From IMG/VR virus record IMGVR_UViG_3300045051_000148: 53,811 nucleotides of DNA, one strand, 5' to 3'. Positions 1,628 through 25,041 of the stretch are shown here, piece by piece. The position numbers and the translations under genes are program-made. Under the pieces are notes generated by a model. It did no database searches and was not told where the DNA came from. It was given only the letters and a program-made list of their open reading frames with translations. Source of the DNA: a virus. Within the stretch, counting starts at the first letter, position 1; the number at the start of each line of letters is the position of its first letter.

Positions 1628-1715
1628 AAATCACCTCAAATCCAATTTTGACGGACCAAAGCACCACACCGACGATCAGGACGGCGGCGATCAGTGCTTC
1701 GGCCCAGTCTCTCAT
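1620..1715 (-). CDS. 31-aa single-TM miniprotein in lysis cassette (candidate holin modulator / lysis accessory)
   Basis: Hand-translated MRDWAEALIAAVLIVGVVLWSVKIGFEVIYG, below the ORF-track cutoff. Its ATG overlaps the stop of the 116-aa gene (ATGA). Its stop overlaps the endolysin start (ATGGCTGA). Confidence 0.45.
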   Translation of the reverse strand: MRDWAEALIAAVLIVGVVLWSVKIGFEVIYG

Positions 1716-2062
1716 GCTGACCAGGGCAGGGGTGGTGTCACCACAGGCGAATTGATCGCGTTGGCGATCTGCGTGGCGACGGCCGACTCGGTGGCGAATT
1801 TGTCCACGCCGTTGGCCCAGATCCAGCCGAGGACCTGAGCTTCGGTGAGCTGGTCGTAGGGCGTGAACGCTGAGCCGGTTGGCGCAGGCAGCGAGCAGGT
1901 GCCATACACGGAGCCGTTGTAGGTCTTACCGTTGACGGTCTGGGCTCCGGAGCAGGTCCAGTGAACGGTAAAAACCACATCGGTTTCGCCATCGGCCTGC
2001 GGGTAGCAGTCCATAGCGGTGACGTCCCAGGTCATGGTGATGGAGGTGAGGGTGTCGGTCAT
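1712..2062 (-). CDS. Hypothetical protein (tail-fibre-adjacent)
   Basis: 116 aa, ATG start preceded by CTGAAAGGAAC. Protein-like composition. No domain recognised. Confidence 0.7.
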   Translation of the reverse strand: MTDTLTSITMTWDVTAMDCYPQADGETDVVFTVHWTCSGAQTVNGKTYNGSVYGTCSLPAPTGSAFTPYDQLTEAQVLGWIWANGVDKFATESAVATQIANAINSPVVTPPLPWSA

Positions 2063-2073
2063 GGTGGTTCCTT

Positions 2074-3972: not shown

Positions 3973-3990
3973 GATGTTTCCTCTCGAAAT

Positions 3991-6537
3991 TTAGAACGTG
4001 CCGCCGGAGATACCCGACCACACTGGTGTGCCTGCGCCAGCCGAAGTGAGCACCTGCCCCGCCGTGCCGTTGGCGATAAACCCGGTCGCGCCTGCGCCGG
4101 TCTGATACGGGATCTGAGACGCTGCGCCGCCTGCCAAGTTGGTGGCCGACGTTGCGTTGCCGGACAGCGATGCCGTGATTGTCCCCGCGCTGAAATTCCC
4201 GGAGGCGTCGCGCGCCACGACCTTGGAGGCCGTGTTGGCTGATGTTGCGTCCACAGCAAACGTGCGCGCGGCTGATCCGTCAAACGTGCCCGTGGAGGTC
4301 AGGAACGCGCCTGCGGTCAGCGCGTTGGCCACCGAGCCAACACCGGTCACAGAGCCGGGTGCGATGTTGGTCCAGAATGTTCCGTTGTACTGGATCAGGT
4401 TGTTGGTGGCCAGGGTGTTGAACTGCACGTTCGAGTCCGTGCCGCCCAGGACGCTGCCAGGGTTCACCAGGACAAAGAACGAGCCCGAGCCGCCAGAGCC
4501 TGCGTGCGTGATGATGCCGAGCTGCACCTTGATGCCGGGCGCGGACGGCTTGACCTTTGTCGGGTTGCCCGTCGTCGGGTTGTACCAGATCACATCGCCG
4601 TCGGCCCAGGTTTCGCCGTAGGCCGAGCCGTTGGTTGTGATGCCGCGAACGAGGCCGTAGGTGGTGATGCGGCCAAAACCGTTGTTGGCGATCGGCTCAG
4701 TGGCGATGCCAAGGATCAGGTTGCCGTCCGTCAGTCCGGCCACTGTCGGGGCAAAGGTGATTTCGCCGGATGCGCCCACGGTGCCCGTTTGGTAGACGAT
4801 TTTCAGCGGGCTGTCACTGATCGTTGCCGAGGCCTTGCCGTAGACGAAAAGCTCCTCGCCGACCTGCTGGGTGATGTTGCCATTGCCCATGCCAAAGTTC
4901 AGCGAGCCGGTCGATCCGTTGTACCACATGCGCCCTGCGGCCAGGGTTACGGCAGCGCCGTTGTTGAACTGGATGTACGGGTTGGCGTTGTCGATCGTGA
5001 GCGCCGACATGGTTGCGCCGTCGGCAAACACCAGCTTGCCCGAGCCCGTCTCGTCGGTCATCGCTGCTGCCAGGTTGGCAGACGACGGCGTGGCCGCCCA
5101 GGTTCCAACGGCAGGCACCGAGAACGAAATCGTGCCGGTCGTCGTGATCGGGCCGCCAGTCAACCCGGTACCGGTGCCAACGCTGGTCACGGTGCCCAGA
5201 GGGTTCGTGGACCAATCAAAAGCCGTGCCATTCCAGCGCAGGAAGGTGTCGGTAACGGTCGGGGCGGTGATGAACCCGGTCGCACCCGAGCCGGTCTGGT
5301 AGGCGATCCTATTGGCCGCGCCGCCAGCAAGGTTCGTGGCCGAGGCCGCGTTGCCGCTGATGCCGATGTTCCACGTGCCCGTCGCGTCGGTGCCGTCCGC
5401 CTTGGGCGCGCCGACCGTGTTGTAGGAGATCGTGGCGGTCGCGCTGCCGTTGTAGGTCTGCCCCGGGCTTGCGCCGCCGGTGGTGTTGAACGTGATCGCG
5501 TTGGCCACCGAGCCAGCCTGGCCCGTGGTGTTTTGGTTGAGCACCGGGACGTCTGAGACCTGGATGGCGGACATCACCACATTCGTGCCGTCGCCGCGCA
5601 GGAACTGAGCCGTTGTCACCGCACCGGCCAGCGTGTTCATAGCCGCCTGGCGCGTGGTCTGGCCCGTGCCGCCCTTGGCGATGCTCACGACGGGCAGGTC
5701 GTCGTTGACCAGCGCCCGGAAGGTCGGGTCGGCGTTGGGGCCCGATGCCGGTCCGCCGAAAAACTGGTTTGCCGGTACAGGGGCCACGATCAGCGTGGAG
5801 CCCCAGGTGGGAGCGCCGCTGCCGCCGGACACCAGCACTTGGCCAAGGGTACCAGCCGTGCCAACATACAAACCGTCCGCGCCTGACCAGATCACCGCGC
5901 CGGGCTGCATCACCAGGCTGCGGCTGGTACCGCCCTGGTCGATGGGCAGGATGCCGTCGATCTGCGTCTGGTCGGCCAGGTCAACAGCCGGGTGGCGGTG
6001 GTCTGAGCGCGAGAGGGTAAGCGCCGTACCGGCCGAGCCAGATCCTGTGCCTGTCAGCGGAGTGCCCCCATATGAAACCGCAAGGGTGACGTTCGAGGAC
6101 AGCGGCCCGCCGCCCGTGAGGCCGTTTCCGGCGATCACCTCGCGGCTGGTGGGCACGTAGCCCGAAATCGACAGCGGAACGGTCGTGGCGGCCGTCACGC
6201 GGCCAGTGGCGTCCACGGTGACCTGGGGAACATTCGAGCCATCACCATACACACCAGGCGTCACGCCCGAGGCGGCCAGCTGCGTGGTGCCAATACCACC
6301 TGGGGCAACCGACAGGGTCACGTTCGAGGACAGCGCACCGCCGCCCGTAAGCCCCGTGCCAGCAATCACCTGGCGCGAGGTCGGAACACCGGCCACCTGC
6401 AGCAGGTCACCGGCGCGGATTTTGTACGTCACGCCCTGATAGACGCCAACAAGCAGCGTGTCCTCCGAAGGCAGCGTCACTGGAACCGGCAGGTTCGTGA
6501 TGCTGATCGGGATGAGGTTTGATGGGACTTGGGCCAT
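3991..6537 (-). CDS. Long tail fibre protein
   Basis: 848 aa. Internal duplicated motif (ASATNLAGGAANRIAYQTGSGATGFI / TSATNLAGGAASQIPYQTGAGATGFI) and GGTG/GGTS fibre motifs. It ends ...SGISGGTF, like the 399-aa protein at 52466. Confidence 0.8.
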   Translation of the reverse strand: MAQVPSNLIPISITNLPVPVTLPSEDTLLVGVYQGVTYKIRAGDLLQVAGVPTSRQVIAGTGLTGGGALSSNVTLSVAPGGIGTTQLAASGVTPGVYGDGSNVPQVTVDATGRVTAATTVPLSISGYVPTSREVIAGNGLTGGGPLSSNVTLAVSYGGTPLTGTGSGSAGTALTLSRSDHRHPAVDLADQTQIDGILPIDQGGTSRSLVMQPGAVIWSGADGLYVGTAGTLGQVLVSGGSGAPTWGSTLIVAPVPANQFFGGPASGPNADPTFRALVNDDLPVVSIAKGGTGQTTRQAAMNTLAGAVTTAQFLRGDGTNVVMSAIQVSDVPVLNQNTTGQAGSVANAITFNTTGGASPGQTYNGSATATISYNTVGAPKADGTDATGTWNIGISGNAASATNLAGGAANRIAYQTGSGATGFITAPTVTDTFLRWNGTAFDWSTNPLGTVTSVGTGTGLTGGPITTTGTISFSVPAVGTWAATPSSANLAAAMTDETGSGKLVFADGATMSALTIDNANPYIQFNNGAAVTLAAGRMWYNGSTGSLNFGMGNGNITQQVGEELFVYGKASATISDSPLKIVYQTGTVGASGEITFAPTVAGLTDGNLILGIATEPIANNGFGRITTYGLVRGITTNGSAYGETWADGDVIWYNPTTGNPTKVKPSAPGIKVQLGIITHAGSGGSGSFFVLVNPGSVLGGTDSNVQFNTLATNNLIQYNGTFWTNIAPGSVTGVGSVANALTAGAFLTSTGTFDGSAARTFAVDATSANTASKVVARDASGNFSAGTITASLSGNATSATNLAGGAASQIPYQTGAGATGFIANGTAGQVLTSAGAGTPVWSGISGGTF

Positions 6538-7955: not shown

Positions 7956-8654
7956 TCAACGCTTGGCAGCCTTGCGGCCTTCGGACAAAGCAATTGCAAT
8001 CGCTTGCTTGGGCTTCGTCACGACCGGGCCCTTTTTGCCCGAGTGCAGCTCGCCCGCCTTGAACTCGCTCATCACCTTGCCGACCTTGGCCTGGCTAACC
8101 TTGCCGCCTGACTTCATGGCCAGCATCGGCTCACGGGGAGCGACGGGCACCATCTTGCGCATCGGGGCCTCGACCTTGCGGCGGGTCTCCATCGCCTCGC
8201 GGCGCATGGTGGGCGTGGCCGCCATCTCGCGCTTATCCATGGCCTCCATGCGGGGCATCTTGGCTTGGCCGCCCTTGGCCAGCTTGAGCGTGGGCAGGTC
8301 CGGCGCCACAGGCTTGGAGCCTTTGATGCCAGGGTTTTTGTTGCCCTTGATGCCCAGCTTGCTGTCGTCCTTGAGCATGTTGTTGCCCACGAACCCAGGG
8401 GCCTCGACCTTGCCGCCTTTGGCCAGCTTGGTCAGCGGCTCGCCCTTGTGCAGCGCCTTCTCGTGCTTGTGCACGGCTTTGGCCACGACCTTCTTGTCCA
8501 TCGCCACATCGCTGTGGACCTTGCCGCCCTCAGCGTAGCAGGCACCGCCCTTGGCGTAGCCCTTGCCAGACACCTTGCCGCCCATGGCGTACTTCACAGA
8601 GCCGTCTTTGCCCTTGGTGCCGAAATCAAACTCTTTGACGTATTTGCAGCCCAT
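7956..8654 (-). CDS. Lys-rich repeat protein with DUF6496-like C-terminus (possible internal/DNA-associated virion protein)
   Basis: The track start is TTG 8666. ATG 8654 has a GGAGAG SD. 232 aa with repeated (A/M/E/S)(K)GGKV units. The C-terminus KVGKVMSEFKAGELHSGKKGPVVTKPKQAIAIALSEGRK resembles DUF6496. Confidence 0.7.
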   Translation of the reverse strand: MGCKYVKEFDFGTKGKDGSVKYAMGGKVSGKGYAKGGACYAEGGKVHSDVAMDKKVVAKAVHKHEKALHKGEPLTKLAKGGKVEAPGFVGNNMLKDDSKLGIKGNKNPGIKGSKPVAPDLPTLKLAKGGQAKMPRMEAMDKREMAATPTMRREAMETRRKVEAPMRKMVPVAPREPMLAMKSGGKVSQAKVGKVMSEFKAGELHSGKKGPVVTKPKQAIAIALSEGRKAAKR

Positions 8655-8666
8655 GTTTCTCTCCAA

Positions 8667-11766: not shown

Positions 11767-12765
11767 TTACGCGCGGTTGTTGCGGTCGTATTCCGCATAG
11801 CGTTTCACGTACTTCATGCGAAGCACGGGATCGTCCCAGACACCGGCATCGATCAGCGCTTGCTTGCGCTCGGGGCTGATGTAGACCTCGGTCCGGGTAC
11901 TTGTCGGCGCGTGCTCGCGGCCAGAGCCGATGGCAGGGCCGCCGCGTTGCTGGCGCTGAGGCTGCTGAGACTGTTGCGACTGCTGGCGCTGGCTGCCCTG
12001 GCCGGAGCCGGACTGCTTGAAGCGCTCAGGCAGGCGGCGTGCCGCACGCTCGCGCAGCTCGTCCCAGTACTCCTCGGTGTCCGGGCGGAAGCCCTCGCGG
12101 TGCAGAGCGCCGTCGATGGCCAGCACGATGGCGCTGTCCTCGTCGCCGCCTTTGATGTCGTACCAGGGGTTTTGGTTGATGAACTCCTTGGCGAAGTGCA
12201 CCGACATGTCGTCCAGGCCGTCGTTCTTGGGCTGGGCTGCCTGGCGTTGGACCATCGCCTGCTGCTTGGCGTAGGCCAGCTGCTGTGCTTTCTGCAAGGC
12301 CTGATCGCGATAGCGCATGGCTTGCGTGACGTCCTCGCCGTTGCCAGCGGCCACCGCCTTGGCGATCACTCGCTCAGCCATCTCCGCTTCGTTCTTGGCA
12401 TTGGCGATCTGCGCATCGATCTGCGACAGGTCAGCCTGGTGCGTGCGCTGCTCGACGGTGCCAAGGCGGCGCTCGAGATCGTCGTTGCGCTTGCGCAAGA
12501 AGTCCAGCTCCAGCTTGTCGCGCTTGATCGCCTGCTCGCGGCGCTCCTTGCGTTCGAGCTTTTCCAGGCGGCGGCGCTCGCGGATCGCCTCACGCTCGGC
12601 GTCGTTGCCGTCGTTGTGGCCATCGTCGTCGTTGCCAGACAGTCGCTCGTCGTCTTCGTGGCCGTCGTCGTTGTCGTCTTGGTTTTGGTTGCCGTTGGGC
12701 TGGTCCTCGACGATGACGATTTCTTCGTTGTTGGGATTGCTGTCGTCTTCAGTCAATGTTGGCAT
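11767..12765 (-). CDS. Acidic coiled-coil protein, scaffold-like
   Basis: 332 aa. N-terminal D/E/N-rich tract, then charged heptad-like region (RERRRLEKLERKERREQAIKRDKLELDFLRKRNDDLERRL) and a Q-rich tail. Its position between portal and capsid fits a scaffolding protein. Confidence 0.6.
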   Translation of the reverse strand: MPTLTEDDSNPNNEEIVIVEDQPNGNQNQDDNDDGHEDDERLSGNDDDGHNDGNDAEREAIRERRRLEKLERKERREQAIKRDKLELDFLRKRNDDLERRLGTVEQRTHQADLSQIDAQIANAKNEAEMAERVIAKAVAAGNGEDVTQAMRYRDQALQKAQQLAYAKQQAMVQRQAAQPKNDGLDDMSVHFAKEFINQNPWYDIKGGDEDSAIVLAIDGALHREGFRPDTEEYWDELRERAARRLPERFKQSGSGQGSQRQQSQQSQQPQRQQRGGPAIGSGREHAPTSTRTEVYISPERKQALIDAGVWDDPVLRMKYVKRYAEYDRNNRA

Positions 12766-12793: not shown

Positions 12794-13192
12794 TTAAACA
12801 AGGGCGTGCTCATTGAGCTTGGACTTGAGCTCGTAGCCCATGAGCGGCCAGATTTTCTGCACGGCGTTGGCGCGAGCAACCTTGCGGCCGATCTCGGCGT
12901 CAAAGTTCTCGGGGCTGGCGCAGGCCGACTCGCCGGTGACGGTGAAGCCGTTTTTCAGCACCAGCACGCAAAAGGTCAACAGGTCGAGTGGAGCCTTTGC
13001 GTTTTCAAACGAGCCGACAACGATTTCGGGCGAGTGCTCTTTGGCTTGCGCAATCACAGCGCCGAGCGTGCCTTGGGCGGCTGTGAAGTAAACCTCCTCA
13101 AAGATGTTGGCCTCGATGTCGGCAGGTGTGATGCGCGGGGCAGTCTTGCCTTTGGCTTGGATTTCAGCTTCGATTTGTGCGTCGGTGGTCAT
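12794..13192 (-). CDS. N4 gp49 / Sf6 gp66 family protein
   Basis: 132 aa. ...ITPADIEANIFEEVYFTA...LTFCVLVLKNGFTVTGESACASPENFDAEIGRKVARANAVQKIWPLMGYELK is the hallmark of the Phage_gp49_66 family as I recall it. Confidence 0.8.
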   Translation of the reverse strand: MTTDAQIEAEIQAKGKTAPRITPADIEANIFEEVYFTAAQGTLGAVIAQAKEHSPEIVVGSFENAKAPLDLLTFCVLVLKNGFTVTGESACASPENFDAEIGRKVARANAVQKIWPLMGYELKSKLNEHALV

Positions 13193-13551
13193 GATGCGTC
13201 CTTTGTGGGTGAGGTTGGGCGCAGGGCGTGCACCACTGCGCGGAAGATGAAGTCCTTGGCTTGCTGAGCTTGGGGCAGCATGTCAAATGGAACGATGCAG
13301 TGATGCGTCTTAGCCTCGGGGTCTTTGACTGGGCCATACACCCAGCCATCGGCAACCTTTTGCGCCATCCAACTTTCGTGGCTGGCTTCGGGTCCGACGT
13401 TGTTGTCGCAGTGCAGGTTCACGCCCATCATGGCGCTGTCTCGCTGCCACTGCGGTGCATCTTCCCAGGCTGGCTGGCTCATGTCGCCCAGGGCTTCGCA
13501 GTAGGCTCGGTTCACCTCATGGCAAACGCGGGCGATCTGTTCGCGGTTCAT
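13189..13551 (-). CDS. RyR-domain protein
   Basis: Track ORF trimmed to ATG 13551 (ATGA overlap). 120 aa. SHESWMAQKVADGWVYGPVKDPEAKTHHCIVPFDMLPQAQQAKD fits the ryanodine-receptor repeat domain signature (HE.W...K...GW.YG...D...K.H..LVP...LP...K..D). Confidence 0.75.
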   Translation of the reverse strand: MNREQIARVCHEVNRAYCEALGDMSQPAWEDAPQWQRDSAMMGVNLHCDNNVGPEASHESWMAQKVADGWVYGPVKDPEAKTHHCIVPFDMLPQAQQAKDFIFRAVVHALRPTSPTKDAS

Positions 13552-13793
13552 GAGTGGCTCCAAGTGATGGCCTTGACAGCCCACATCTGAGCGGTTTGTG
13601 CTTCTGTGATTGCGATGCTGAGCATGCGTTTGACTTCGGCGTCAGTTGCTTCTTGGCGGCGGAGGTTCAGGTTGTCCACCAAATTGGCGAACTCCTGCTT
13701 CACGAGTGCCACGGACAAATTGCCGCCAGGGTTGAACGACACGCCACAGGCTTTTTCGCCAAATGTAAATTCACGGTTTGGTGTTTCGGTCAT
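13548..13793 (-). CDS. Small helical phage protein (possibly Acb2/Vs.4-like; unverified)
   Basis: 81 aa. ...FTFGEKACGVSFNPGGN...VDNL...EAQTAQMWAVKAITW. The motifs recall a widespread small phage family. The assignment is from memory only. Confidence 0.7.
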   Translation of the reverse strand: MTETPNREFTFGEKACGVSFNPGGNLSVALVKQEFANLVDNLNLRRQEATDAEVKRMLSIAITEAQTAQMWAVKAITWSHS

Positions 13794-13805: not shown

Positions 13806-14216
13806 TCAGATGAAAGCACGGATGGCCAGCGGGTCGCCGGTCACCTGGCCGATGATGTCCAGATCGTTGAAGATCACGAACAGGGCGGACTCGCCGTTGG
13901 GAAGCGGCACCTCCCAGCGGTCGCCGCCGTATTTCGGCACGCGAACGTAGTCGCCCGGGCTGCACCAGCTGCCTTCGGGCCAGGGGTCCATGGTGTTTCG
14001 GTTCTTAAAGGCAAGGGTCCCAACGGAGACGACGCGCGCCACCTGGGTGTTCCACTTCTCGGTGTCCCGAGAGCCGTTGTCAATGATGATTCCGGATGCC
14101 GTTTTGGTCTTGGGGGTGCGGATCTGCACCAAGACTCGGCTCCCGAATGGGACGATCCCAGGATTCGCCTCGGGGAAGGCTTCTCGCATCGCTTCAATCA
14201 GCGCGTCAGCTGTCAT
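13806..14216 (-). CDS. GroES/Cpn10-like co-chaperonin
   Basis: 136 aa. PFGSRVLVQIRTPKTKTASGIIID...ARVVSVG...PGDYVRVP...FVIFNDLDIIGQV parallels the GroES pattern (P..DRV.V....E.KT..GI......G.V.AVG......GD.V.......I....DIL). Confidence 0.75.
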   Translation of the reverse strand: MTADALIEAMREAFPEANPGIVPFGSRVLVQIRTPKTKTASGIIIDNGSRDTEKWNTQVARVVSVGTLAFKNRNTMDPWPEGSWCSPGDYVRVPKYGGDRWEVPLPNGESALFVIFNDLDIIGQVTGDPLAIRAFI

Positions 14217-14638: not shown

Positions 14639-17158
14639 TCAGGGTTGTGGGTTGATACCGGTGCCGGTGGACACCGCTACTTTTTCGCCAGAGGCAATTT
14701 CTGCTGCGGCCAGACGCATGGCCGTCACGTTGTCGGCCGTGTTCATCTCAACACGGGCGCTGATTTCGGCTGCGGTCCTCTGGTTTTCGGCAAACTCGCG
14801 CATCTGATCGGCCTGGAACTGCTCCGAGCGGGCCTGCTGCTTGTCGGCCAGCGCGGCGGCATCGGACTGAACCTTCTGTGCTGCCTTCTGCTGCTCGATC
14901 TGCAGGCGCTGCTGGTCGGTCTGTGCGCGCTGCTGCAGGGCAAGTTGCTGCACCTGCGCGTTGAGCTGCGCAATCTCCATGCTTTTGTCCTGCGGCATCT
15001 GAGGTGGCTGAGGGGCAAACTGCTGGGCCATCTGATCGATCTGGGCCAGCTCCTTGGAAAACTGCGCCAGCTGCTGCTCGATGATCTGCTGCACGCGCAC
15101 GATGACCTTGACCTGCTGCTCGGCGTCGTCGGTGATCAAATGCTCGCGCTCGGCGCGCTGCACGGCCTCGTGGGCTTGCGTCAGGTAGAAGTTCAACAGG
15201 TGGTCGCGCAGGTGCTGCGCCATCGGGTAGATGTAGGTCTTGACGATGGCCGGGTTCATGCCAAACACCGGCGACTTCAAGAACGCCAAGTGCGTCTGGA
15301 TGTGCGCCACGTGGTCCTGCTTGGGCAGCACGTAGACCGGGCGGCCCATCGAGGCGGCCACGTTCTCGCTAACCGGGTCGACGTCGTCCTGACCAGGCTG
15401 AGGCTGCAGCACGTCGTCCGGGCTGAGCTTGAGGTTGCGCAGGAACATTTCCTCGACCTTGCGCAGGTCGTACATCTGCGGCATGGCAGATGCACGGGCC
15501 TGCACGGCCTGGACCTGGGCGAAGCGCTGCGCCTCGCTGAAGATGGCCGGGTCGGACACGGGCACAACGTCCATCGGGCCGTCGAAGTCCTCGGGCTTCA
15601 CATCCAGGCCGTTTTCCATGGCCTCGATGTCTTCTTCGGTCAGGTACGCGCTGTTGATGCGGTGCAGGATGGCAAACACGCGTGCCATGCTGTTGTGCAG
15701 GCGCGAGTGGATGGAGCTGAACACCACCATGCCCTGCTCGATGAGCGCCAGGGTCGTGCCCACCGGGGCGTTGGGGTTTTGGTCGGACAGCTTCTCAAAC
15801 GAGGTCTGCACCACGCCCTTGCCCGCGTCCACCAGGAAGCCGAGCAGCTGGAACAGCGTGGGGCTTGGGCCGTTGAACGGCAGGGCCATGGCCAGCTTGC
15901 GAATGTCGTCGACCAGAGCTCCGCCCTCAATCTCGACCACCTCGGTCGGCTGCAGGTTGATCGTCTGGCCGCCAGGGCCGCCCTTGAGTTTCAAAAGCGT
16001 CGGGATGTTTTGGATGTGGGCCGAGTCCAGCAACGCACGCAGCGCGCCAGTGGCTGCGCCCGACAAGCCGCCGATCATGTGGGTCAGGCCAATCGGGTAC
16101 GCGCCGCGCCAAGGCACGAACGGGAACTCGACAATCCAGTCCAGCTCCTTGCGGCGCTGGTCCTCTGGCTCCCAGTTGCGGTACAGCGAGAGCGCCTTGC
16201 GCGTGGACTTGTCGATGCTGATGATGTACGGCTCCATGCCGTCACCAAAGTCCAGGTGGGTGTAAATCTCGAAGATGGTCCGCAGGCCGTCCTCGTTGTA
16301 GCTGGTGTCCTCGCGGCCCTCGATCTTGTCGTTGGCGATCGTGGCCTTGCTGAACTCGACCTGATCGGGCGAGCCCAGGTCCACCTCGGTGTACATGCCC
16401 GCCTTCATGCGGCGGTTGAACTCGGCCTTGGTGACGTACTGCACGTGCGTCTTGCGCTCGGCCGAGTAAAAGTTGGTGGCCGCAAACGGCAGGTAAATGT
16501 CGTCGATGGCGATGAACTCGGCCGTCGGGCGCTTCCACTGCGGGGACCACATGAGCTTGAGGTACTGGCCGCCACCCAGGGGGAGTTGGGTGGACAGCTG
16601 CTCCAGCTCGCCGCGCAGCTCGGGCATTTGCTGCGTGGTCTGCCAATTCATGAACTCGGCCTTGCGGCGGGCCTTTTCCAGCTTCTCGGGCTCAGCCTCG
16701 CCCAGAATCTTGGACTTGACCGGGCCGGAGGGCGGGAAAACCTCCTTCATGAATCGTGCGCTGAAATCGACACAGGCCTCGACCAGCATCGGGTGCACCA
16801 CCTTGTTGGCTCCCGAGAACTGAGCACCGCCGGGTGCATCGTCGCCCAGGCCGGTGCGGCGCAGGCCTTCCTCGTAGAGCTTGTCGCGCTTGGAGCGGGC
16901 GTCCTTGTCGCGCTCGATCTTGTCGAGCAGGTCAACGACCGCGTCGGACAGCATGCTGCGATCGACCTCGTCGACGATGTTGGCAAAGTGAGCCTTCTTG
17001 TCGGCCACATCCTGCTCGTTCTTCATGCGGATGACCGCGCCACCGTCCTCGGTATCTTCAACCTCCAGATCGTCGTCGGGCATGGAGACGGTTTCGCCTC
17101 GCTGCTCATCGTCGCTTGGGTTCTCGTCTTCGCCGTCGTTCAGGAGTTGGTCAGCCAT
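14639..17158 (-). CDS. Portal protein (long, with C-terminal Q-rich helical extension)
   Basis: 839 aa. Acidic N-terminus, conserved-looking core and a long C-terminal coiled coil (QQLAQFSKELAQIDQMAQQF...QQRLQIEQQKAAQK) reminiscent of P22-type portal barrels. Lies in the packaging/head module. Confidence 0.75.
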   Translation of the reverse strand: MADQLLNDGEDENPSDDEQRGETVSMPDDDLEVEDTEDGGAVIRMKNEQDVADKKAHFANIVDEVDRSMLSDAVVDLLDKIERDKDARSKRDKLYEEGLRRTGLGDDAPGGAQFSGANKVVHPMLVEACVDFSARFMKEVFPPSGPVKSKILGEAEPEKLEKARRKAEFMNWQTTQQMPELRGELEQLSTQLPLGGGQYLKLMWSPQWKRPTAEFIAIDDIYLPFAATNFYSAERKTHVQYVTKAEFNRRMKAGMYTEVDLGSPDQVEFSKATIANDKIEGREDTSYNEDGLRTIFEIYTHLDFGDGMEPYIISIDKSTRKALSLYRNWEPEDQRRKELDWIVEFPFVPWRGAYPIGLTHMIGGLSGAATGALRALLDSAHIQNIPTLLKLKGGPGGQTINLQPTEVVEIEGGALVDDIRKLAMALPFNGPSPTLFQLLGFLVDAGKGVVQTSFEKLSDQNPNAPVGTTLALIEQGMVVFSSIHSRLHNSMARVFAILHRINSAYLTEEDIEAMENGLDVKPEDFDGPMDVVPVSDPAIFSEAQRFAQVQAVQARASAMPQMYDLRKVEEMFLRNLKLSPDDVLQPQPGQDDVDPVSENVAASMGRPVYVLPKQDHVAHIQTHLAFLKSPVFGMNPAIVKTYIYPMAQHLRDHLLNFYLTQAHEAVQRAEREHLITDDAEQQVKVIVRVQQIIEQQLAQFSKELAQIDQMAQQFAPQPPQMPQDKSMEIAQLNAQVQQLALQQRAQTDQQRLQIEQQKAAQKVQSDAAALADKQQARSEQFQADQMREFAENQRTAAEISARVEMNTADNVTAMRLAAAEIASGEKVAVSTGTGINPQP

Positions 17159-17162
17159 GTGT

Positions 17163-19334
17163 TCAGCCCGCGTTCATTGCGTGGAGCTCGTCCACGATGG
17201 ACCCGATTCTAGCCGGGTCAAAGTCGTCTGTGTGGAAATTCGCACCGGACACCAGGCCGCCGGATGCGAAGCCTTCCGCGTTCTTGCGAACGATGTCCTT
17301 GTACTCGTCCTCGGTGACGAACCGCTGGCCGCCGCGCATCTCGGCTGGCACGCCCATCTGCTGGAGATCAACAAGGCCCGTGTTTTTCAGGTCGCCGACG
17401 TTGCTCCAGTTTTGGCTGCGCACAAAGTCATGAACCATTGGAAGCAAATGCGCATCTGGATTATCTTTGTAACCGGTACCGGCATGTCGAATTTTTTGTC
17501 CAGGGTCTTTTTTTCCGGAACCTTTGATTTGAACGATCTCATGAGGAAGACTGCGAACCCACTCCGCATATTCAGGTGTTGCCTCAATGTCTGAAATAAG
17601 CAAATCTTGAGATGCAATTTTGCTTGACTTTGGATAAAGCTTTTGAGCCTCTTTTTCAAGATCAAGATTTTTTGATGCCAAATACTGATACACGGAACCT
17701 TCACCAGGTCGCACCTCGATCGTCACGTGCGGCTGGCCCTTCTTGTCGCGCAGGCTGAAAATCTTGGATCTGCCTTCGATCACATCCGGGCAGTAGCCGC
17801 CGACGCAGTGGCCCATGGTCTCGCCCTCGTACTTGAGCGCGTCCTCCAGGGCTTTGTAGGACTCGTCCATTTCGACCTTCTTCTTCCGATTAAAGTCGGT
17901 CATCAGGTTGCGCACAAAGTCGTTGAACTCCGGAGTGCCTTCGTCAAATCCCTCGTCAAATGCCATGTCCTCAGCCACTTCGCGCATCTGACGCTGGTCC
18001 ATGTCCGGAGGTAAATCCATCTCGGATTTCTCGACGGTGATCTTGCGTCCAGTTTCCTTGGGTGCTTTGAGCTCGACCCATTTGAAGCCCTGCTCGGGGT
18101 ACTCCTTGAAAACCTGCGTGGCCGGGCCCATGGCGCGGGCCATGTCAGCCTCGACCTTTTGGGCCGCGCGCCAGGCGTTGATGTCCGCCACGCGCTGAAC
18201 GGCCTGGGGCACCGTGACCTTCTCCAGGTCCTGGTACTTCCAGCGCAGGTTCTCGGGCAGGCCGGACGTTGGATTGATGGCGTTTTTCAGCTCGTCGACC
18301 AGGTGGCCAAAGCCAAGCATGCCCTGCCCTGCGGAGCCTTGCAGCATCTCGTACACCGGTGTCTCTGGAGGAACCTTGAGCAGCCAGGGGTTTTCCTTCA
18401 CGGTCTCCGGGTAGTAGCCGGTGATGTCCGATGCTTTGAGCGGGTTGATGAATGTGTCCGCCCGATCCTCCCAGGTCTTGGCCAGCGGCGACACGCCCAT
18501 GCCTTCCTCGGGAAATCCTGCCTCGCGGCGCGCGCGGGTGACGTTGTAGCCAGTGGGCAAAATCTCGGAGTGAATCGGGCCCTTCTCGGCCAGGGCTCGA
18601 ATGGGGTCCTCGGCGGTCCCCATCTCGTTTTTGATGTACTTGGCCAGCTTTGTGTCGAGCCAGCGGTTCATGGCCGCCTCAGACTCAAGTCGAGAGCGCT
18701 CGCGAGCAAAAAGCTCTGGATTTACTTCAACGCCAGCTTCAACATTTTGCGCATAAGCCGCATCAAGGTCGCGCAGTCGAGCGGCTGGGTCTTGTCCAAT
18801 GACTTTCACCCGCATCGGGGCAATCTCGCGCTCGATGCTGCCGGCCAGCCAGTTGCCGCCCTTGGGCTTGACCACCTGCGATCGGGATCCTGTGACCATG
18901 TCCTGCATCAGCTGCGCGCCGATGCCGCCACGCTCCATCACCTGTGGCACAACGCGCTCGGCCAGGCGTTCGCCAGCGCGGCCAGCAGCCATGGCGCCAC
19001 GTGTGGCGGTTTTGCCGGCCATCGCAGCGAGAGGCGTGACGTTCATCGCAACATCAGCAACGTCTGCAACCCGAGGATCAAGCCTGAAAGTGCCGATGCC
19101 ACCGGTGGCCACGTTGCCACCACGAATCAGGGCGCGCGGCCCGTAGTAAGAAACGTCCTCAGCAAGGGAGGCGGCGCCGGGTAGCGAAAGCAGCTCGTCA
19201 ACGCTGGTGCCGCCAAGCAGCGGAATGCGTGGATCGACCTGGTACTGGCCAGCAAGTTGTTGCAGTGAGCGCAAACCTCGCGCCAGTGCGCCCGTGTATG
19301 GGTTTTGAGGCGTTGCCCGGATGTTGTCAGCCAC
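17163..19334 (-). CDS. Large portal-adjacent protein with PcfJ-like domain (candidate packaged/ejected protein)
   Basis: 723 aa, GTG start with AAGGAG SD 7 nt upstream. The segment KYEGETMGHCVGGYCPDVIEGRSKIFSLRDKKGQPHVTIEV...IVQIKGSGKKDP resembles the PcfJ-like family (PF14284). Contains a low-GC in-frame patch at ~17430-17700. Confidence 0.75.
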   Translation of the reverse strand: MADNIRATPQNPYTGALARGLRSLQQLAGQYQVDPRIPLLGGTSVDELLSLPGAASLAEDVSYYGPRALIRGGNVATGGIGTFRLDPRVADVADVAMNVTPLAAMAGKTATRGAMAAGRAGERLAERVVPQVMERGGIGAQLMQDMVTGSRSQVVKPKGGNWLAGSIEREIAPMRVKVIGQDPAARLRDLDAAYAQNVEAGVEVNPELFARERSRLESEAAMNRWLDTKLAKYIKNEMGTAEDPIRALAEKGPIHSEILPTGYNVTRARREAGFPEEGMGVSPLAKTWEDRADTFINPLKASDITGYYPETVKENPWLLKVPPETPVYEMLQGSAGQGMLGFGHLVDELKNAINPTSGLPENLRWKYQDLEKVTVPQAVQRVADINAWRAAQKVEADMARAMGPATQVFKEYPEQGFKWVELKAPKETGRKITVEKSEMDLPPDMDQRQMREVAEDMAFDEGFDEGTPEFNDFVRNLMTDFNRKKKVEMDESYKALEDALKYEGETMGHCVGGYCPDVIEGRSKIFSLRDKKGQPHVTIEVRPGEGSVYQYLASKNLDLEKEAQKLYPKSSKIASQDLLISDIEATPEYAEWVRSLPHEIVQIKGSGKKDPGQKIRHAGTGYKDNPDAHLLPMVHDFVRSQNWSNVGDLKNTGLVDLQQMGVPAEMRGGQRFVTEDEYKDIVRKNAEGFASGGLVSGANFHTDDFDPARIGSIVDELHAMNAG

Positions 19335-20139
19335 AGCTGCACTCCTTCACGTGGTTGAGGGCGCCGCCGACGCGGCCGCCTTTCTGGAATTTCTTGGAGC
19401 GAAGCACCTCGACCGCTGGACCCTCGAGCCGGCGGAACAGCTCAGTGTCGGTTGCCTCGGGCGTTGGCGTGAGCTGCTTGTTGCCAAGCTGCAGCTCGTG
19501 GCGGCCAAGGCCCTGGCCAGAGCGGTACCGGAGCAGGGTCAGCGGGGAAACATCCTCGAGCAGCTCGCCCAGGTCGCCGCCGTAGTCGAAGTACTCGCGG
19601 AAAAGCGGGTCGTCCTGGATCGAGCGGAAGGTGCCCTTGCTGCCTGCGCGCTGCAGCTCGAAGCGCGCAGCGTCGAGCATCTTCGGGTCGAAAACCCGCT
19701 GCGGGTTGTCGGTGGCAAAAAAGTTGTACGAGGTGACACGGCGCATGCCGTCGCGCGTCGGTGGCACAGCAATCAGCGTGCGAACGTCGCGGCCAGTCCT
19801 GGTCGGCGGGTAGTTGGTGCTGTAGAAGCTGAAGTCTTGGCGGCTCGGGGCGGTCTCAAAGATCGAGAAGCCGGATCCGGGGTGCGTGTGGAAGTCCAGG
19901 ATGGCCGGACCACCAGGAGCGCGCACTGCCTGCCGAAGGTCGTAGGCGTTGGGCGTCACGCTGGACTCGGTGCCGCGTGTGATTGCCGACGCGCCGCCTT
20001 CGTTGGCCAGGCCAATGACCGAGTGCTCGCGCCCGGTCTGCGCTGTCTGGCGCAAGGCCTCGCGGATGACGTCGGCTTGCTGTGGTGCCTCACGCGCAAG
20101 AAGTGCGCGCAGCTTTGCGAGGACTGAAACTGGAGGCAT
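19327..20139 (-). CDS. JAB/MPN-like (JAMM-type) domain protein
   Basis: 270 aa. ILDFHTHPGSGFSIFETAPSRQD gives H84-x-H86 ... S99-x-x-D102 with a longer than canonical spacer, and upstream Glu candidates (E38/E47). Overlaps the next gene by 8 nt. Confidence 0.65.
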   Translation of the reverse strand: MPPVSVLAKLRALLAREAPQQADVIREALRQTAQTGREHSVIGLANEGGASAITRGTESSVTPNAYDLRQAVRAPGGPAILDFHTHPGSGFSIFETAPSRQDFSFYSTNYPPTRTGRDVRTLIAVPPTRDGMRRVTSYNFFATDNPQRVFDPKMLDAARFELQRAGSKGTFRSIQDDPLFREYFDYGGDLGELLEDVSPLTLLRYRSGQGLGRHELQLGNKQLTPTPEATDTELFRRLEGPAVEVLRSKKFQKGGRVGGALNHVKECSCG

Positions 20140-20142
20140 GAT

Positions 20143-20418
20143 TTACCACTTCACTTTGTTGGCCCAATAGGCCGCGCTCGACGGCCCCTTGGCGATGTTC
20201 TTGGCGTGGCGGGCCTTGAAGCTGTCCCGCTTGTCCTTCATGGCCTGGGACTCGCCGGCCTTGGGCTTGCCGGCGGTCTTGGCGCCCTGCTCGCCGAAGC
20301 GGATCACCTTCTCCTGGCCATCAAAGCAGGCTTTGACGATGTGGGACTTCTTCGGGTGGTCCGGGGTGCGTTTCGGCTGGTTGCAAGCCATCTCGGATTT
20401 CTTGGCGGTCTTTGTCAT
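20143..20418 (-). CDS. Small basic protein
   Basis: 91 aa. ...KKSHIVKACFDGQEKVIRFGEQG...RDSFKARHAKNIAKGPSSAAYWANKVKW looks like a conserved phage family whose name I cannot give with confidence. Confidence 0.7.
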   Translation of the reverse strand: MTKTAKKSEMACNQPKRTPDHPKKSHIVKACFDGQEKVIRFGEQGAKTAGKPKAGESQAMKDKRDSFKARHAKNIAKGPSSAAYWANKVKW

Positions 20419-20588
20419 TTCGACCTCCGCGCGGCGCGCATGTTGTCGACCAGGTTGGGGTAAGGTCGTCCGGCCTTCTCGGCTGCGCGCTTGGCGCTGG
20501 ACTTGGCGCTGGGGGAGAGAGCCTTGGGAGCGCCCAGGGAGGTGGGGCGCTTCTTGTCCCAGATGGGCTTGGGTGGCTTAGACGGCAT
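20415..20588 (-). CDS. Small basic protein
   Basis: The track ORF starts at TTG 20633, deep inside terL. I prefer ATG 20588 (57 aa, MPSKPPKPIWDKKRP...AGRPYPNLVDNMRAARRSK). ATGA overlap with the next gene. Confidence 0.5.
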   Translation of the reverse strand: MPSKPPKPIWDKKRPTSLGAPKALSPSAKSSAKRAAEKAGRPYPNLVDNMRAARRSK

Positions 20589-22158
20589 ACGGGTTGACCT
20601 TTCCTTCACGACGATGGGGCCGATCTTCGTCAACGTCGCGTGCCTGTGGCAGCTCGAACCAGCCGTCGTTCTTCAGGTAGATGACCGCCTGCGTGAAGGT
20701 GTCCACGTAGTCGTCATGTTCCGCGACGGGGAACTTCGCCACTTGGGTCAGGAACGGCTGGGCCCAGCTCACAGGCTGGCCGGGGTTCTTGGCAGACTCC
20801 GGGATCCACAGCAGTCCAAGCTCCAACGTCGGCGCGGTCTGGTGCGCCCTCGACACCTTGTCCGCTTGGCCCGGATTGTAGCCAACGGCCGGCACCTTGG
20901 CCAGACGCAGGTCCTGCAGCAGCGATTGGCCACTGGCCTTGGCCTCGACCAGGATGCGGTCGGGCTTCCTTCCCTTGGTCGGCATCCCAGCCTTGGCCGA
21001 CTTGTCCGCCCCGTACTCGCTGGTCCAGTCGCGGATCACCTTGGAGCGCAGGTCGGGGTAGCCCAGGTGCTCGTCCCAGGCGTCGAGCAGCATGGCGTTG
21101 CGCAGGCCTCGGTGCGTGAACACGCCCCAGACCGTGCAGGCCGTCGGGTCGCCCGTGGTCCGCTCGGTGAAGGCGCAGTCGTAGCTTTGCAGGATGTACT
21201 CAAAGGGCGGCAGGCGCTGGGCCACCGGCCAGAGGTTGAAGCAGTCGGCCTTCAGGATGCCGCCCTCGGCGGGCGACGGCTCTTGCTGCAGCTGGCCAGC
21301 GGTGCCGTAGGTGCCCAGCAGCTGCTTGAGCTTGGTGATCTCGGCCTCGCCGAAGCGGTCGGGGCAGATCAGCTCGCCCTTGGTGCGGCGCGGGTCGTAG
21401 GGCCCGAGCACCGTCCTGCGCTGTTTGCCGTCCCACTCGGCCGGGATGCAGATGTGCTCCCAGCCTTTGATGTCGTTGAGGATGTGCCCGCTGATGTCCT
21501 TCTCGTGCAGGCGCTGCATGACCGTCACCATGGCGTCGGTCTTGGGGTTGTTCAGACGCGTGGACCAAACCATGTCGAACCACTCGAGCGCGCTCTCGCG
21601 CATGGTCTCGGACTGCGCGTCCTGTGCGCCGTGCGGGTCGTCCAGGATCAGGCGCGAGCCGCCCTCACCGGTTGCGGTACCGCCCACCGAGGTGGCCAGC
21701 CGGTAGCCGGTCTTGTTGTTCTCGAATCGCTGCTTGGCGTTTTGGTCCCCGGCCAGCTGGAACATGTGCCCCCAGCGCTCCTGGTACCAGGGCGACTGGA
21801 TCAGCCGCCGGGCCTTGAGGTTGTCTCGGATGGACAGCGTGCCGGAGTAGGACGCGGCGAGGAACTTCTGCTCGGGCGAGGTCAGCCACTCCCAGCAGCA
21901 CCAAGCCACCGAAACGATGGTGGACTTGGAGTGGCGCGGCGGGATGTTGATGAGCAGGCGCTGAATCTCGCCGAAGCTGACGGCCTCCAGGTGCTCGCAG
22001 ATCAGCTCGATGTGCCAGCTGGGCACAAACGGGACGCCGGGCTCCATGACGTGCCAAGCCTGTTTGACGAACTCGTACAGGCTGGCGCTGGCGCGGCGGC
22101 GGTCCTGTTCCTTGGCGATCAGGTCCAGCATGACGGCGGGGGAGACGGGTGCGTTCAT
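20578..22158 (-). CDS. terL: Terminase large subunit
   Basis: 526 aa. Walker A-like INIPPRHSKST, Walker B LILDDPH, ATPase coupling and nuclease-half character typical of Terminase_6-type TerL. Confidence 0.93.
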   Translation of the reverse strand: MNAPVSPAVMLDLIAKEQDRRRASASLYEFVKQAWHVMEPGVPFVPSWHIELICEHLEAVSFGEIQRLLINIPPRHSKSTIVSVAWCCWEWLTSPEQKFLAASYSGTLSIRDNLKARRLIQSPWYQERWGHMFQLAGDQNAKQRFENNKTGYRLATSVGGTATGEGGSRLILDDPHGAQDAQSETMRESALEWFDMVWSTRLNNPKTDAMVTVMQRLHEKDISGHILNDIKGWEHICIPAEWDGKQRRTVLGPYDPRRTKGELICPDRFGEAEITKLKQLLGTYGTAGQLQQEPSPAEGGILKADCFNLWPVAQRLPPFEYILQSYDCAFTERTTGDPTACTVWGVFTHRGLRNAMLLDAWDEHLGYPDLRSKVIRDWTSEYGADKSAKAGMPTKGRKPDRILVEAKASGQSLLQDLRLAKVPAVGYNPGQADKVSRAHQTAPTLELGLLWIPESAKNPGQPVSWAQPFLTQVAKFPVAEHDDYVDTFTQAVIYLKNDGWFELPQARDVDEDRPHRREGKVNPYAV

Positions 22159-23435: not shown

Positions 23436-24794
23436 TCAATCCGGCTTTTTGGCCGGTTTGGTCTTGTCGGCCTTGGGTTTGTCGGCCTTCCCGATCTCGC
23501 TCCCGATCAGGCTGTTGGGGCTGCGTTCGCCCATCACCTCGGTGAAGGATCGCCCGTCGGCCTCCAGGTGCGCGTGCTTGCCGGTGAACTGCTGCCAGCG
23601 GGTGACGATCACGTCGCAGTATTTTGGGTCCAACTCCATGAGCCTGGCAACTCGGCCGTTTTTCTCGGCTGCGATAAGGGTGGTGCCAGAGCCTCCGAAG
23701 CTGTCCAGGACGATGTCGCCGCCCTTGGTGTTGTTGAGCATCTGGTACTCGAAAAGGGCCACGGGTTTCATGGTCGGGTGCTCGCCGTTGCGGGCGGGCT
23801 TGTCGAACTCGAGGATGGTGGTCTGCTTGCGGTCGGCAGCCCAGAGGTGGCCCGCGCCGTCTTTCCAGCCGTAGAGACATGGCTCGTGCTGCCACTGGTA
23901 GTCTTGGCGGCCGAGGACAAGGCTGGACTTCTTCCAGATCAGGCACTGGCGCACGGTCCAACCGGCGTCCTTGGCGGCTCCCCGGAAGTTGTAGCCCTCG
24001 CTGTCGGCGTGCCAGATGTAGAAAACCGCCCCGGCTTTCATGACCGCGTTGGCTGCGGTGTAGGCATCGCGCAGGAACTCGCGGAACTGGGTGTCGCCCA
24101 TCGAGTCGTTTTTGATGGTGAGCTTCTCTTTGGTACCGCCCTCATAGGCCACGTTGTAGGGCGGGTCGGTCAGCCACATGTCCACAGGTTGTCCGGCGCA
24201 GAGCTTTTCCAGGTCGTCGATGCTGGTGGAGTCTCCGCAGAGCAGTCGGTGACTGCCCATGACCCACACGTCGCCTTGGACGGTGACCGGGTTGGCCGGG
24301 GCCTCGGGCGCGTCGTCGGGGTCTGTGAGGCCTTCCTCCAGCTCCAGGGGCATCAGGGCGTCGATCTCTTCTTCGGTGAAGCCTGTGAGGCCAACGTCGA
24401 AGCCGAGGTCCATCAAGTCTTTGAACTCGGTGGCCAGCATGGCGTTGTCCCATCCGGCGTTGAGGGCGAGTCGGTTGTCGGCAATGATGTAGGCGCGTTT
24501 CTTGGCCTCGGACCAGCCGGTGGCGACCATGACCGGGACCGTTTTGATTTTGAGGCGCTGTGCGGCCATTGTGCGGCCGTGTCCGGCAATGATGCCGCCT
24601 TGCTCATCGACCAGGATGGGCGTGGTCCAACCCCACTCTTTGATCGAGGCTGCGATCTGTCCGATCTGCTCGTCTGAGTGGGTGCGGCTGTTGCGTGCGT
24701 AAGGGATAAGTTTGTCGATGCTCCACTGCTCGATTTTGTCGGCAGGGTTTCCGGTGAGTTTTTCGGCGGTGATTTCCGTGGTGGGTTTTGTCAT
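23436..24794 (-). CDS. ParB-like nuclease domain fused to N6/N4 DNA methyltransferase
   Basis: Trimmed to ATG 24794 (452 aa). ParB-N-like IPYARNSRTHSDEQIGQIAASIKEWGWTTPILVD...IIAGHGR, then the methylase motif IV WLTDPPYNV and a C-terminal AdoMet motif VLDSFGGSGTT. Confidence 0.9.
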   Translation of the reverse strand: MTKPTTEITAEKLTGNPADKIEQWSIDKLIPYARNSRTHSDEQIGQIAASIKEWGWTTPILVDEQGGIIAGHGRTMAAQRLKIKTVPVMVATGWSEAKKRAYIIADNRLALNAGWDNAMLATEFKDLMDLGFDVGLTGFTEEEIDALMPLELEEGLTDPDDAPEAPANPVTVQGDVWVMGSHRLLCGDSTSIDDLEKLCAGQPVDMWLTDPPYNVAYEGGTKEKLTIKNDSMGDTQFREFLRDAYTAANAVMKAGAVFYIWHADSEGYNFRGAAKDAGWTVRQCLIWKKSSLVLGRQDYQWQHEPCLYGWKDGAGHLWAADRKQTTILEFDKPARNGEHPTMKPVALFEYQMLNNTKGGDIVLDSFGGSGTTLIAAEKNGRVARLMELDPKYCDVIVTRWQQFTGKHAHLEADGRSFTEVMGERSPNSLIGSEIGKADKPKADKTKPAKKPD

Positions 24795-24819
24795 GAGGTG
24801 CCTTCGGTGGTGGTGGGGA

Positions 24820-25041
24820 TTATGCAACGCGCCAGCAGCGGGCACCGCCTTCGACTGTGTTGCAGGTGAATTTTTTGCCTGTTTTGTTGGCGTGCCACTG
24901 AGCGGAGTTGCTCAAGGCTCTTGCGCTCATCTTGGGGGCAAAAAACGAATCGCCGATCTCCATTTTTGCAAACGGGTACTTGGGTCGAGCGCCGCCACCG
25001 GTGTGCTCAGGGGCGGGGATATTTTTCTCTATTTCGAACAT
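24820..25041 (-). CDS. Small conserved phage protein, first gene of late/packaging block
   Basis: 73 aa, AAGGA SD. ...ARPKYPFAKMEIGDSFFAP... resembles small proteins often found next to ParB-methylases. Confidence 0.65.
   Translation of the reverse strand: MFEIEKNIPAPEHTGGGARPKYPFAKMEIGDSFFAPKMSARALSNSAQWHANKTGKKFTCNTVEGGARCWRVA

Follow-up and report, generated by a model that had tools for sequence, protein, structure and literature searches.

A PcfJ-like hub protein with exchangeable modules, among them a JAB/JAMM metallopeptidase, between terL and portal of uncultured phages

The stretch of viral DNA analysed here, 53,811 nt in length and hereafter called the window (IMG/VR record IMGVR_UViG_3300045051_000148), contains at positions 17,163-20,588, between the genes for the large terminase (terL) and the portal, a cassette of four genes. 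These encode two basic miniproteins (mini1 and mini2), a JAB/JAMM metallopeptidase of 270 aa and a PcfJ-like protein of 723 aa. On balance, we favour the view that these genes represent, in split form, a phage polyvalent protein whose constant hub is the PcfJ-like protein. The JAB would be an interchangeable, active (iso)peptidase directed at Gly-Gly, and the products would enter the capsid near the portal and leave it with the DNA. Lineages carry various modules around the hub (JAB, DUF6973, ART-PolyVal, LPD23, DUF7178, SLT and mini2), either as separate coupled genes or fused to it, and a conserved, disordered delimiter, EG[FY]AxGG[AL]V, marks off each module. Synthesis of the products would be late, along with that of the head proteins; they would be taken up by the procapsid near the portal, would leave it with the DNA and would act within the first minutes of infection. 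The JAB itself would be a zinc-dependent (iso)peptidase of the deubiquitinase-like branch, cutting after Gly-Gly, and is most likely an effector directed at the host, which might for instance remove the ubiquitin-like or CD-NTase (cGAS/DncV-like nucleotidyltransferase) conjugates of host immunity.

The polyvalent concept is itself already known. Iyer, Burroughs, Anand, de Souza and Aravind (2017; PMC5512222) predicted that polyvalent proteins are packaged in the capsids of portal-terminase phages and delivered with the DNA, and that embedded peptidases release their domains. [quoted passage not shown] A first-pass annotation, made by a model from the letters of the window, had put forward a virion-delivered JAB and PcfJ-like pair, acting in counter-defence or host takeover, as a plausible and apparently undescribed system. 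The polyvalent concept covers this kind of system, and the slot of DSL-LC04, a phage known as a metagenome-assembled genome (MAG), already holds a gene annotated 'PcfJ-like protein'. What is new here is the PcfJ hub, the private deubiquitinase-like JAB module, the polymorphism between split and fused forms, and the GG delimiter, which was previously unreported.

Conservation of the terL-portal slot

Four co-directional open reading frames (ORFs) on the minus strand are confirmed between terL and portal (Table 1), and the first-pass description of four genes, two of them encoding basic miniproteins, was exact down to the junctions it gave. The ATG of mini1 at 20588 overlaps the terL stop, an overlap of 11 nt in all, mini1 and mini2 share an ATGA, mini2 and the JAB gene are separated by 3 nt, the JAB and PcfJ-like genes overlap by 8 nt (GTGGCTGA), and a gap of 4 nt precedes portal. 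Homologues of all four genes occur in the same order on independent metagenomic contigs, so the ORFs are genes and not chance reading frames. Near-identical contigs come from freshwater or wastewater samples. The PHROG matches of the slot proteins are to families of 'unknown function'. The portal is 57% identical to the protein at the portal position of Caulobacter phage RW, which is annotated as hypothetical, and its lower-identity matches in other phages are annotated as portal or head-to-tail connector.

A relative of the 723-aa protein is encoded by more than 541 IMG/VR viral contigs, and the hub family comprises more than 731 homologous proteins. The loci analysed numbered 86, dereplicated into 75 clusters, and every dereplicated locus that holds all three genes (50/50) has the hub gene placed between the other two, terL and portal. 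Because the hub keeps this position across the clade, the content of the slot is not a private insertion, and the first-pass label 'accessory insertion' fits only the JAB, which is present in 15/65 dereplicated loci. The slot appears from these comparisons to be a clade-wide cargo position in uncultured phages of about 52-60 kb. The order terL, PcfJ-like protein, portal is found also in DSL-LC04, and terL directly adjoins portal in the Caulobacter RW-like phages and in roseophage CRP-901. Mini1 is present in 27/65 related loci. One locus (L006, 10889-13759) has two tandem PcfJ-like paralogues, of 699 and 956 aa, between JAB and portal. The mini2 family is unannotated, very large (at least 8000 matches) and conserved at 80-100% identity, an identical protein being present on 40 contigs; it is far more conserved than its neighbours.

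The cultured pelagiphage HTVC027P (L089), which has a related portal, carries two unrelated uncharacterised genes in the slot (1666-5797), gp41 (483 aa) and gp42 (892 aa). Neither was detected as a homologue of the hub or of the JAB; stretches of the type A-x-G-G-R-[IV]-G-Y are present, and this phage could be an experimentally tractable analogue.

Fusions and exchange of modules around the hub

The gene immediately upstream of the hub differs between relatives. DUF6973 is found in 18/65 loci and never together with JAB (0/65), 35/73 loci have neither, and at least five other unrelated proteins besides these two occupy the same position, which is a swap site. The unrelated proteins of this position all end in one and the same tail, ...GG-L-A-Q-x-K-E-C-x-C-(H)-G (loci L023, L039, L046, L048, L052, L060, L065 and L074). 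At the DNA level the K-E of the tail is always AAGGAG, the Shine-Dalgarno sequence of the hub gene, and the final residues follow from the start ATG-GCT-GA that overlaps them; in the window, too, the AAGGAG of the JAB tail serves the GTG start of the PcfJ-like gene. An explanation of the KECSC(H)G tail purely as a DNA-level artefact of Shine-Dalgarno and start holds in part, for K-E and the residues at the very end. The two Cys, however, are kept through synonymous codon changes, with free variation of the residue that separates them, so that C-x-C is under selection at the protein level. Roles in metal binding, disulfide formation or attachment may be raised for this C-x-C. A programmed frameshift linking JAB to the hub was rejected: a slippery site was not found, and the geometry of Shine-Dalgarno and GTG is that of ordinary translational coupling.

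In five of the 15 JAB-bearing loci the JAB shares an ORF with the hub. It stands N-terminal to the PcfJ core in two loci (L038, L042) and two database proteins (P0170, P0175), C-terminal to it in two further loci (L056, L068) and five database proteins (P0168, P0173, P0183, P0186, P0195), and within the PcfJ protein in one locus (L066). Independent N- and C-terminal fusions of this kind act as a Rosetta stone and indicate that JAB and PcfJ work together, in agreement with the first-pass suggestion that they form a pair. Mini2 is fused as an N-terminal module of the hub in L073 and L085 and is then followed directly by a delimiter (KVKW-ADGGSV). ART-PolyVal (PF18760) and LPD23 (PF18838) score above cutoff in homologues, which include an LPD23...PcfJ architecture, and DUF6973 and DUF7178 occur in the same chains as PcfJ; one locus (L031) encodes DUF6973-PcfJ-ART-PolyVal as a single chain. 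A relative of the JAB (P0176) combines an SLT lytic transglycosylase, an ART-like region and JAB. The window's own slot proteins hold one module each, the multi-domain chains being those of orthologues.

The resemblance to polyvalent proteins lies in the stringing of unrelated effector-type domains in one polypeptide (here in the orthologues), in the location of the genes near portal and terminase, and in the presence of the signature domains ART-PolyVal and LPD23 and of embedded peptidases in homologues of the cassette. There are also differences, in that the hub is PcfJ-like and not a zincin MPTase, the peptidase belongs to the deubiquitinase-like JABs, theirs being RadC-type JABs, and the cassette of the window is split into four coupled genes, with a GG delimiter bounding the modules. 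By analogy, the position of the genes, the domain partners (ART-PolyVal, LPD23, SLT) and precedent would point to packaging. The idea of a capsid-delivered cargo indirectly gains some support from the fusion of homologues to these three domains, which are hallmarks of polyvalent or ejected proteins.

It might be supposed instead that the proteins are never packaged and act late in the cytoplasm, as chaperones of portal or procapsid assembly or, for the JAB, as a late counter-defence enzyme that removes Bil-type tags from new virion proteins. The sole hard fact on timing, the place of the genes in a late head operon with translational coupling, is in keeping with this, the phage encodes a Cpn10 nearby, and the Bil system has been reported to tag tail proteins late in infection. 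However, the fusion partners ART-PolyVal, LPD23 and SLT are domains that ejected proteins typically have, assembly factors do not usually come as optional and swappable modules, and the matches of the JAB among viral structure models (BFVD) include JAB-bearing minor capsid proteins. We consider such a late cytoplasmic role unlikely.

A further comparison is with the minor head proteins of the MuF/SPP1 gp7 type, which also are products of portal-adjacent head-module genes carrying variable effector domains; the BFVD matches just mentioned, annotated 'minor capsid proteins' and about 550 aa long, add to the likeness. The cassette differs in having no Phage_Mu_F domain, in lying upstream and not downstream of portal, and in its unrelated carrier domain. 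No Pfam match to Phage_Mu_F was obtained at E<=0.1 for any of the four slot proteins and PHROG gave no support, and the alternative named in the first-pass annotation, that the 723-aa protein is an ordinary MuF or head-morphogenesis protein, was rejected.

The JAB/JAMM metallopeptidase

Sequence and predicted structure together identify the 270-aa protein as a JAMM/JAB metallopeptidase of a small private family. The JAMM string DFHTHPGSGFSIFETAPSRQD is present, nine residues (E38, D82, H84, T85, H86, P87, P98, S99 and D102) are invariant in an alignment of 36 family members, and the complete E...HxH...SxxD motif is found in the family, HxHP being kept in essentially all full-length relatives. 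The spacer between H and S, which the first-pass annotation rightly described as long, has 12 residues in the window protein against seven in the canonical motif, and its length varies across the family. An AlphaFold2 (AF2) model of high confidence (pLDDT 90, pTM 0.87; tail 253-270 disordered) has a predicted JAB/MPN fold, and Foldseek searches of the PDB with it returned almost only JAB/MPN isopeptidases, among them BRCC36 (E=2.4e-4), Citrobacter BubCD (prob 0.99), CSN5, AMSH/Sst2, Rpn11 and PfJAMM1. Pfam Prok-JAB is matched by 26/36 family members (best E=6.8e-5). Motif, fold and family thus bear out the earlier JAB/MPN-like call. In BFVD the matches comprise, besides the minor capsid proteins, a giant-virus deubiquitinase. 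The family is rare: only 57 JAB relatives came up when 1.84 billion representatives were searched exhaustively with a profile, GenBank phages yielded none at E<=1, and the window JAB matched no NCBIfam family.

A different activity for the JAB may also be considered, with nucleic acids or nucleotides as substrates in place of peptides, in line with what Iyer et al. put forward for the RadC-type JABs of polyvalent proteins. RadC-type JABs within very long polyvalent phage proteins are among the weaker BFVD matches, 1/36 family members weakly matches Pfam RadC, and the argument for nucleic acids is one given by Iyer et al. (PMC5512222). Against this, the best structural matches are ubiquitin-type isopeptidases, the full E...HxH...S..D peptidase motif is present, and RadC was reported solely from conjugative-element polyvalent proteins (PMC5512222), which makes a RadC-like activity very improbable.

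Cap3, the JAB of Bil systems and BubCD resemble the phage protein in their JAMM fold and catalytic motif, BubCD being among its best structural matches, and these enzymes cut after the C-terminal Gly of a ubiquitin-like moiety. The phage JAB is distinguished by its place in a head module, by a distinct C-terminal helical domain, and by the long, variable insert between HxH and S..D. The slot neighbours, in the window and in related loci, are terL, mini1, mini2, the PcfJ-like gene and portal; E1/E2-like or ubiquitin-like genes are absent beside the JAB in the window and in all related loci. With the PADLOC defence models, too, the window protein has no match, and one family member scores a negligible 11.9 bits (E=0.032). 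The link to Cap3 and Bil-type enzymes drawn in the first-pass annotation is not supported by these comparisons, and the JAB cannot be filed with either.

The Gly-Gly delimiter

In fused relatives the motif P-E-G-[FY]-A-x-G-G-[AL]-V stands at nearly every module boundary. It was counted 176 times in the hub set against 16.4 expected from shuffled sequences (z=43) and 24 times in the JAB set against 1.5, as compared with two occurrences against 5.7 expected in a terL control set; the homologous sequences counted are not independent, though there are several sites per protein. In total 71/75 hub proteins have it. Both delimiters of the window proteins lie within segments modelled as disordered. 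That of the JAB contains G254/G255, invariant in the family, and a delimiter directly follows every JAB domain in the relatives, some family members ending two residues past the GG (...GGHV, ...GGSV). In the hub the delimiter precedes the conserved terminal helix (GFASGG-LV...FDPARIGSIVDEL), and the motif of this helix, [YF]DPxx[IV]xxI[IV], also ends many JAB-containing relatives. The stand-alone mini1 and mini2 of the window have no delimiter. Four delimiter-like motifs (KYAMGGKV, GYAKGGAC, YAEGGKV and MKSGGKV) occur in a 236-aa ORF of the structural module, which is possibly, to judge from these motifs, a further cargo using the delimiter. One such motif, MPRFARGGLN, is seen in a 744-aa ORF (48497-50731, minus strand), parts of which match regions annotated 'tail tape measure protein' in DSL-LC04 and in Caulobacter phage GB2A. 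A loose resemblance of the delimiter to the mobile loop of GroES (SAGGIVL) is in a different register, and mimicry of that loop was set aside as a remote idea.

Adenovirus protease cuts (M/I/L)xGG|x and pS273R of African swine fever virus (ASFV) cuts GG|x, both in polyproteins of the virion core, and JAMM enzymes trim the residues that follow GG in precursors of ubiquitin-like proteins. By analogy with these enzymes the JAB could be the maturation protease of the cassette, cutting after the GG of the delimiter (EG[FY]AxGG|[AL]V) to free the modules and trim tails, in the capsid or after ejection. JAMM enzymes do cleave after GG, the delimiters lie in disordered linkers that coincide with the module boundaries, one following immediately upon each JAB domain, and the members that end two residues past GG resemble ubiquitin-like precursors; Iyer et al. 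also predicted autoprocessing by embedded peptidases (PMC5512222). The likeness to the adenovirus and ASFV enzymes extends to a hydrophobic-x-G-G|x site separating internal virion modules and to a protease of deubiquitinase-like specificity, although theirs are clan CE cysteine proteases of eukaryotic viruses, whereas most of the phage relatives have no JAB and cleavage here is only putative. The motif is present in nearly all hubs and the JAB in few loci, so the JAB is not the motif's general partner; the loci without JAB and DUF6973 keep the motif, and stand-alone proteins retain it with nothing to separate. The JAB was thus rejected as a universal delimiter protease; we do not think that it is the general processing enzyme of the cassette, and judge the maturation role unlikely. 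Since the JAB is optional and alternates with other modules, it is most likely an effector directed at the host, and a counter-defence role is put forward as a hypothesis.

The motif might alternatively be a signal for docking or cargo loading, in which the delimiter and the [YF]DPxxIxxI[IV] helix would bind the inner capsid, the portal or the scaffold and the JAB would be one cargo among others. Encapsulin cargo-loading peptides and the capsid-targeting sequence of T4 are comparable in logic. The motif is universal regardless of whether a JAB is present, persists at the C-terminal end of modules that have a gene of their own and recurs in the 236-aa and 744-aa ORFs, and the terminal helix is conserved. 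On the other hand, several copies per polypeptide flanking each module exceed what loading would need, and mini1 and mini2 have no motif as stand-alone proteins (though a fused mini2 precedes one). Docking is a credible if lesser possibility; it concerns the motif, and is compatible with a split polyvalent protein.

It is conceivable, if doubtful, that the delimiters are sites of Gly-Gly processing or recognition and that a private, deubiquitinase-like JAMM enzyme borne in the capsid, once ejected, cuts the cargo into active effectors, or strips the ubiquitin-like or CD-NTase conjugates made by Bil, type II CBASS (cyclic oligonucleotide-based antiphage signalling system) or Bub systems. No deconjugase would then have been known before to be delivered by a virion, and the enzyme would be to bacterial viruses what the GG-specific core proteases are to adenovirus and ASFV.

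The PcfJ-like hub protein

By its sequence the 723-aa protein belongs to the PcfJ-domain proteins, and it forms the conserved hub around which the locus is built. The motif EGETMGHCVGGY...IFSLRDKKGQPHVTIEV, on which the first-pass annotation had based its PcfJ-like call, is present, and the call holds up in that PF14284 gives 39.4 bits where Pfam requires 25, a cutoff passed also by all fused relatives tested. The match covers aa 499-564 of the hub and positions 76-144 of the 147 in the profile. This family is named after PcfJ of the Enterococcus plasmid pCF10, with which the hub has in common a core of E-G-x-x-M-x-H-C-x-G-x-Y...S-L-R-D...H-V-T-I-E, and both proteins occur on DNA elements that enter new cells. 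They differ in that only the profile positions given above align, plasmid relatives sharing only about 43 residues with the hub, and in that the phage protein, which is 5 times longer, has an extensive conserved core on its N-terminal side as well as an insert that is hypervariable. No literature on the function of PcfJ was found; the sole 'PcfJ-like' paper encountered treats targets of diversity-generating retroelements in the candidate phyla radiation, and involvement of such elements was dropped as not relevant to the cassette. The orphan PcfJ domain appears to gain a context here, as DNA-accompanying cargo common to phages and plasmids.

The conserved core was modelled at pLDDT 70-90. The N-terminal 154 aa that precede it are replaced in relatives by other sequence, by DUF6973 or by JAB. 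They also share 42% identity with the N-terminal part of a hypothetical protein, 420 aa long, of an unrelated 33-kb phage (MW202710; L090, 5998-7260), so that the region is itself a mobile module. Within the PcfJ domain there is a hypervariable cassette with a G+C content of 40-45% against a background of 62% (the dip spans about 17400-17700, aa ~545-645), and discrete alleles of it are common to backbones that are only about 60% identical overall. This suggests recombinational exchange or diversifying selection, and such a hypervariable, recombining segment may be read as the signature of an arms race.

Two candidate relationships of the core were dropped. Invariant E505, D530, E540, Q602 and K604 gave rise to the idea of a PD-(D/E)xK nuclease, and Foldseek returned no nuclease, the best matches being weak GNAT folds at E>=0.3. 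An invariant 16-aa stretch, EGETMGHCVGGYCPDV (hub aa 503-518; 17787-17834), resembles residues 90-105 of E. coli SecB (EGTQMAHCLGAYCPNI) and recurs in PDB and NCBIfam searches; at E=0.2-0.85 and with no fold support, kinship with SecB was treated as chance.

Packaging, delivery and significance

A number of points weigh against the proposal of a split, capsid-delivered polyvalent protein. Packaging and all other functional steps are inferred, and no cultured phage was found to carry the cassette, DSL-LC04 being a MAG. The loci compared are the best 80 of the more than 541, biased to close relatives, and their ORFs were called crudely, as longest frames. The hub core has no significant structural match in the PDB by Foldseek (best E=0.31, to scattered GNAT folds) and no sequence match to solved structures. 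TM-scores of the JAB to solved JABs are low, 0.25-0.30 on the query, so that it is a distant member of the superfamily; the window JAB scores only 14.3 bits on Pfam Prok-JAB, below the cutoff of 25, and it and three relatives match none of the PADLOC defence-JAB models. Nor can a ubiquitin-like target in the host be inferred from the data.

In a cell that has just been infected, polyvalent proteins are predicted to act before other phage proteins, and almost none has been characterised. The cassette offers a compact test bed for them, with a constant hub of no recognised fold, few swappable modules and a short boundary motif, and its presence on so many IMG/VR contigs makes it abundant in environmental phages. 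If the JAB is delivered and directed at Gly-Gly, it would give access to the way in which multi-effector cargo is processed after ejection, and to the question of whether phages counter ubiquitin-like immunity with deconjugases of their own.

Table 1. Positions in the window of the slot genes, their domains and motifs, and a further ORF with delimiter-like motifs
Feature	Position	Strand	Evidence or remark
terL, large terminase, 526 aa; 5' flank of slot	20578-22158	-	phrog_38 E=2.9e-91; Pfam Terminase_6C 29 bits
mini1, 57 aa counted from ATG, basic, pI 11.5	20415-20588	-	phrog_34011
mini2, 91 aa, basic, pI 10.1	20143-20418	-	phrog_7595
JAB/JAMM metallopeptidase module, 270 aa, with helical domain at C-terminus	19327-20139	-	motif, AF2 model, Foldseek
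General-base residue E38 of JAB	20026-20028	-	invariant alignment column
JAMM metal-site motif H84-T-H86-P...P98-S99-x-x-D102	19834-19890	-	invariant alignment columns
JAB C-terminal delimiter and tail, KKFQKGG-RVGGALNHV-KECSCG	19330-19392	-	disordered in AF2 model
PcfJ-like hub protein, 723 aa, GTG start	17163-19334	-	Pfam PF14284 39.4 bits
Hub N-terminal region, variable, predicted disordered, aa 1-154	18873-19334	-	differs between relatives
Conserved hub core, aa 155-690, begins at invariant KPKGGNW	17265-18872	-	>100 invariant columns
Hypervariable low-GC cassette within PcfJ domain, between TIEVxP and EIVQIKG	17460-17708	-	alleles shuffled among divergent backbones
Hub C-terminal delimiter GFASGGLV	17250-17273	-	G692, G693, V695 invariant
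Hub C-terminal helix, conserved, FDPARIGSIVDELHAMNAG	17166-17225	-	family alignment
Portal, 839 aa; 3' flank of slot	14639-17158	-	phage portal-protein matches
236-aa ORF in structural module (between capsid and tail genes), C-terminal DUF6496 (E=2e-9)	7956-8666	-	four delimiter-like motifs

Other genes of the window

A gene for a Cpn10/GroES-like protein (13806-14216, minus strand) is conserved after portal across the clade and is found in the same place in HTVC027P, DSL-LC04 and Caulobacter RW; the region of its mobile loop reads KTASGIII. A candidate for the scaffold protein is encoded at 11767-12765. Just downstream of portal and Cpn10 there is a second variable spot (12794-13584, minus strand), which in the window encodes a RyR-domain protein (13189-13584) and a protein of the N4 gp49/Sf6 gp66 family (12794-13192). 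Two relatives, L003 and L004, were compared at this spot, and the latter has there a Tad2-like gene, of the anti-Thoeris family. Upstream of the terminase region, as in L003, lies a gene for a fusion of ParB_N with an N6/N4 DNA methyltransferase (23436-24845, minus strand), a candidate for an anti-restriction function.

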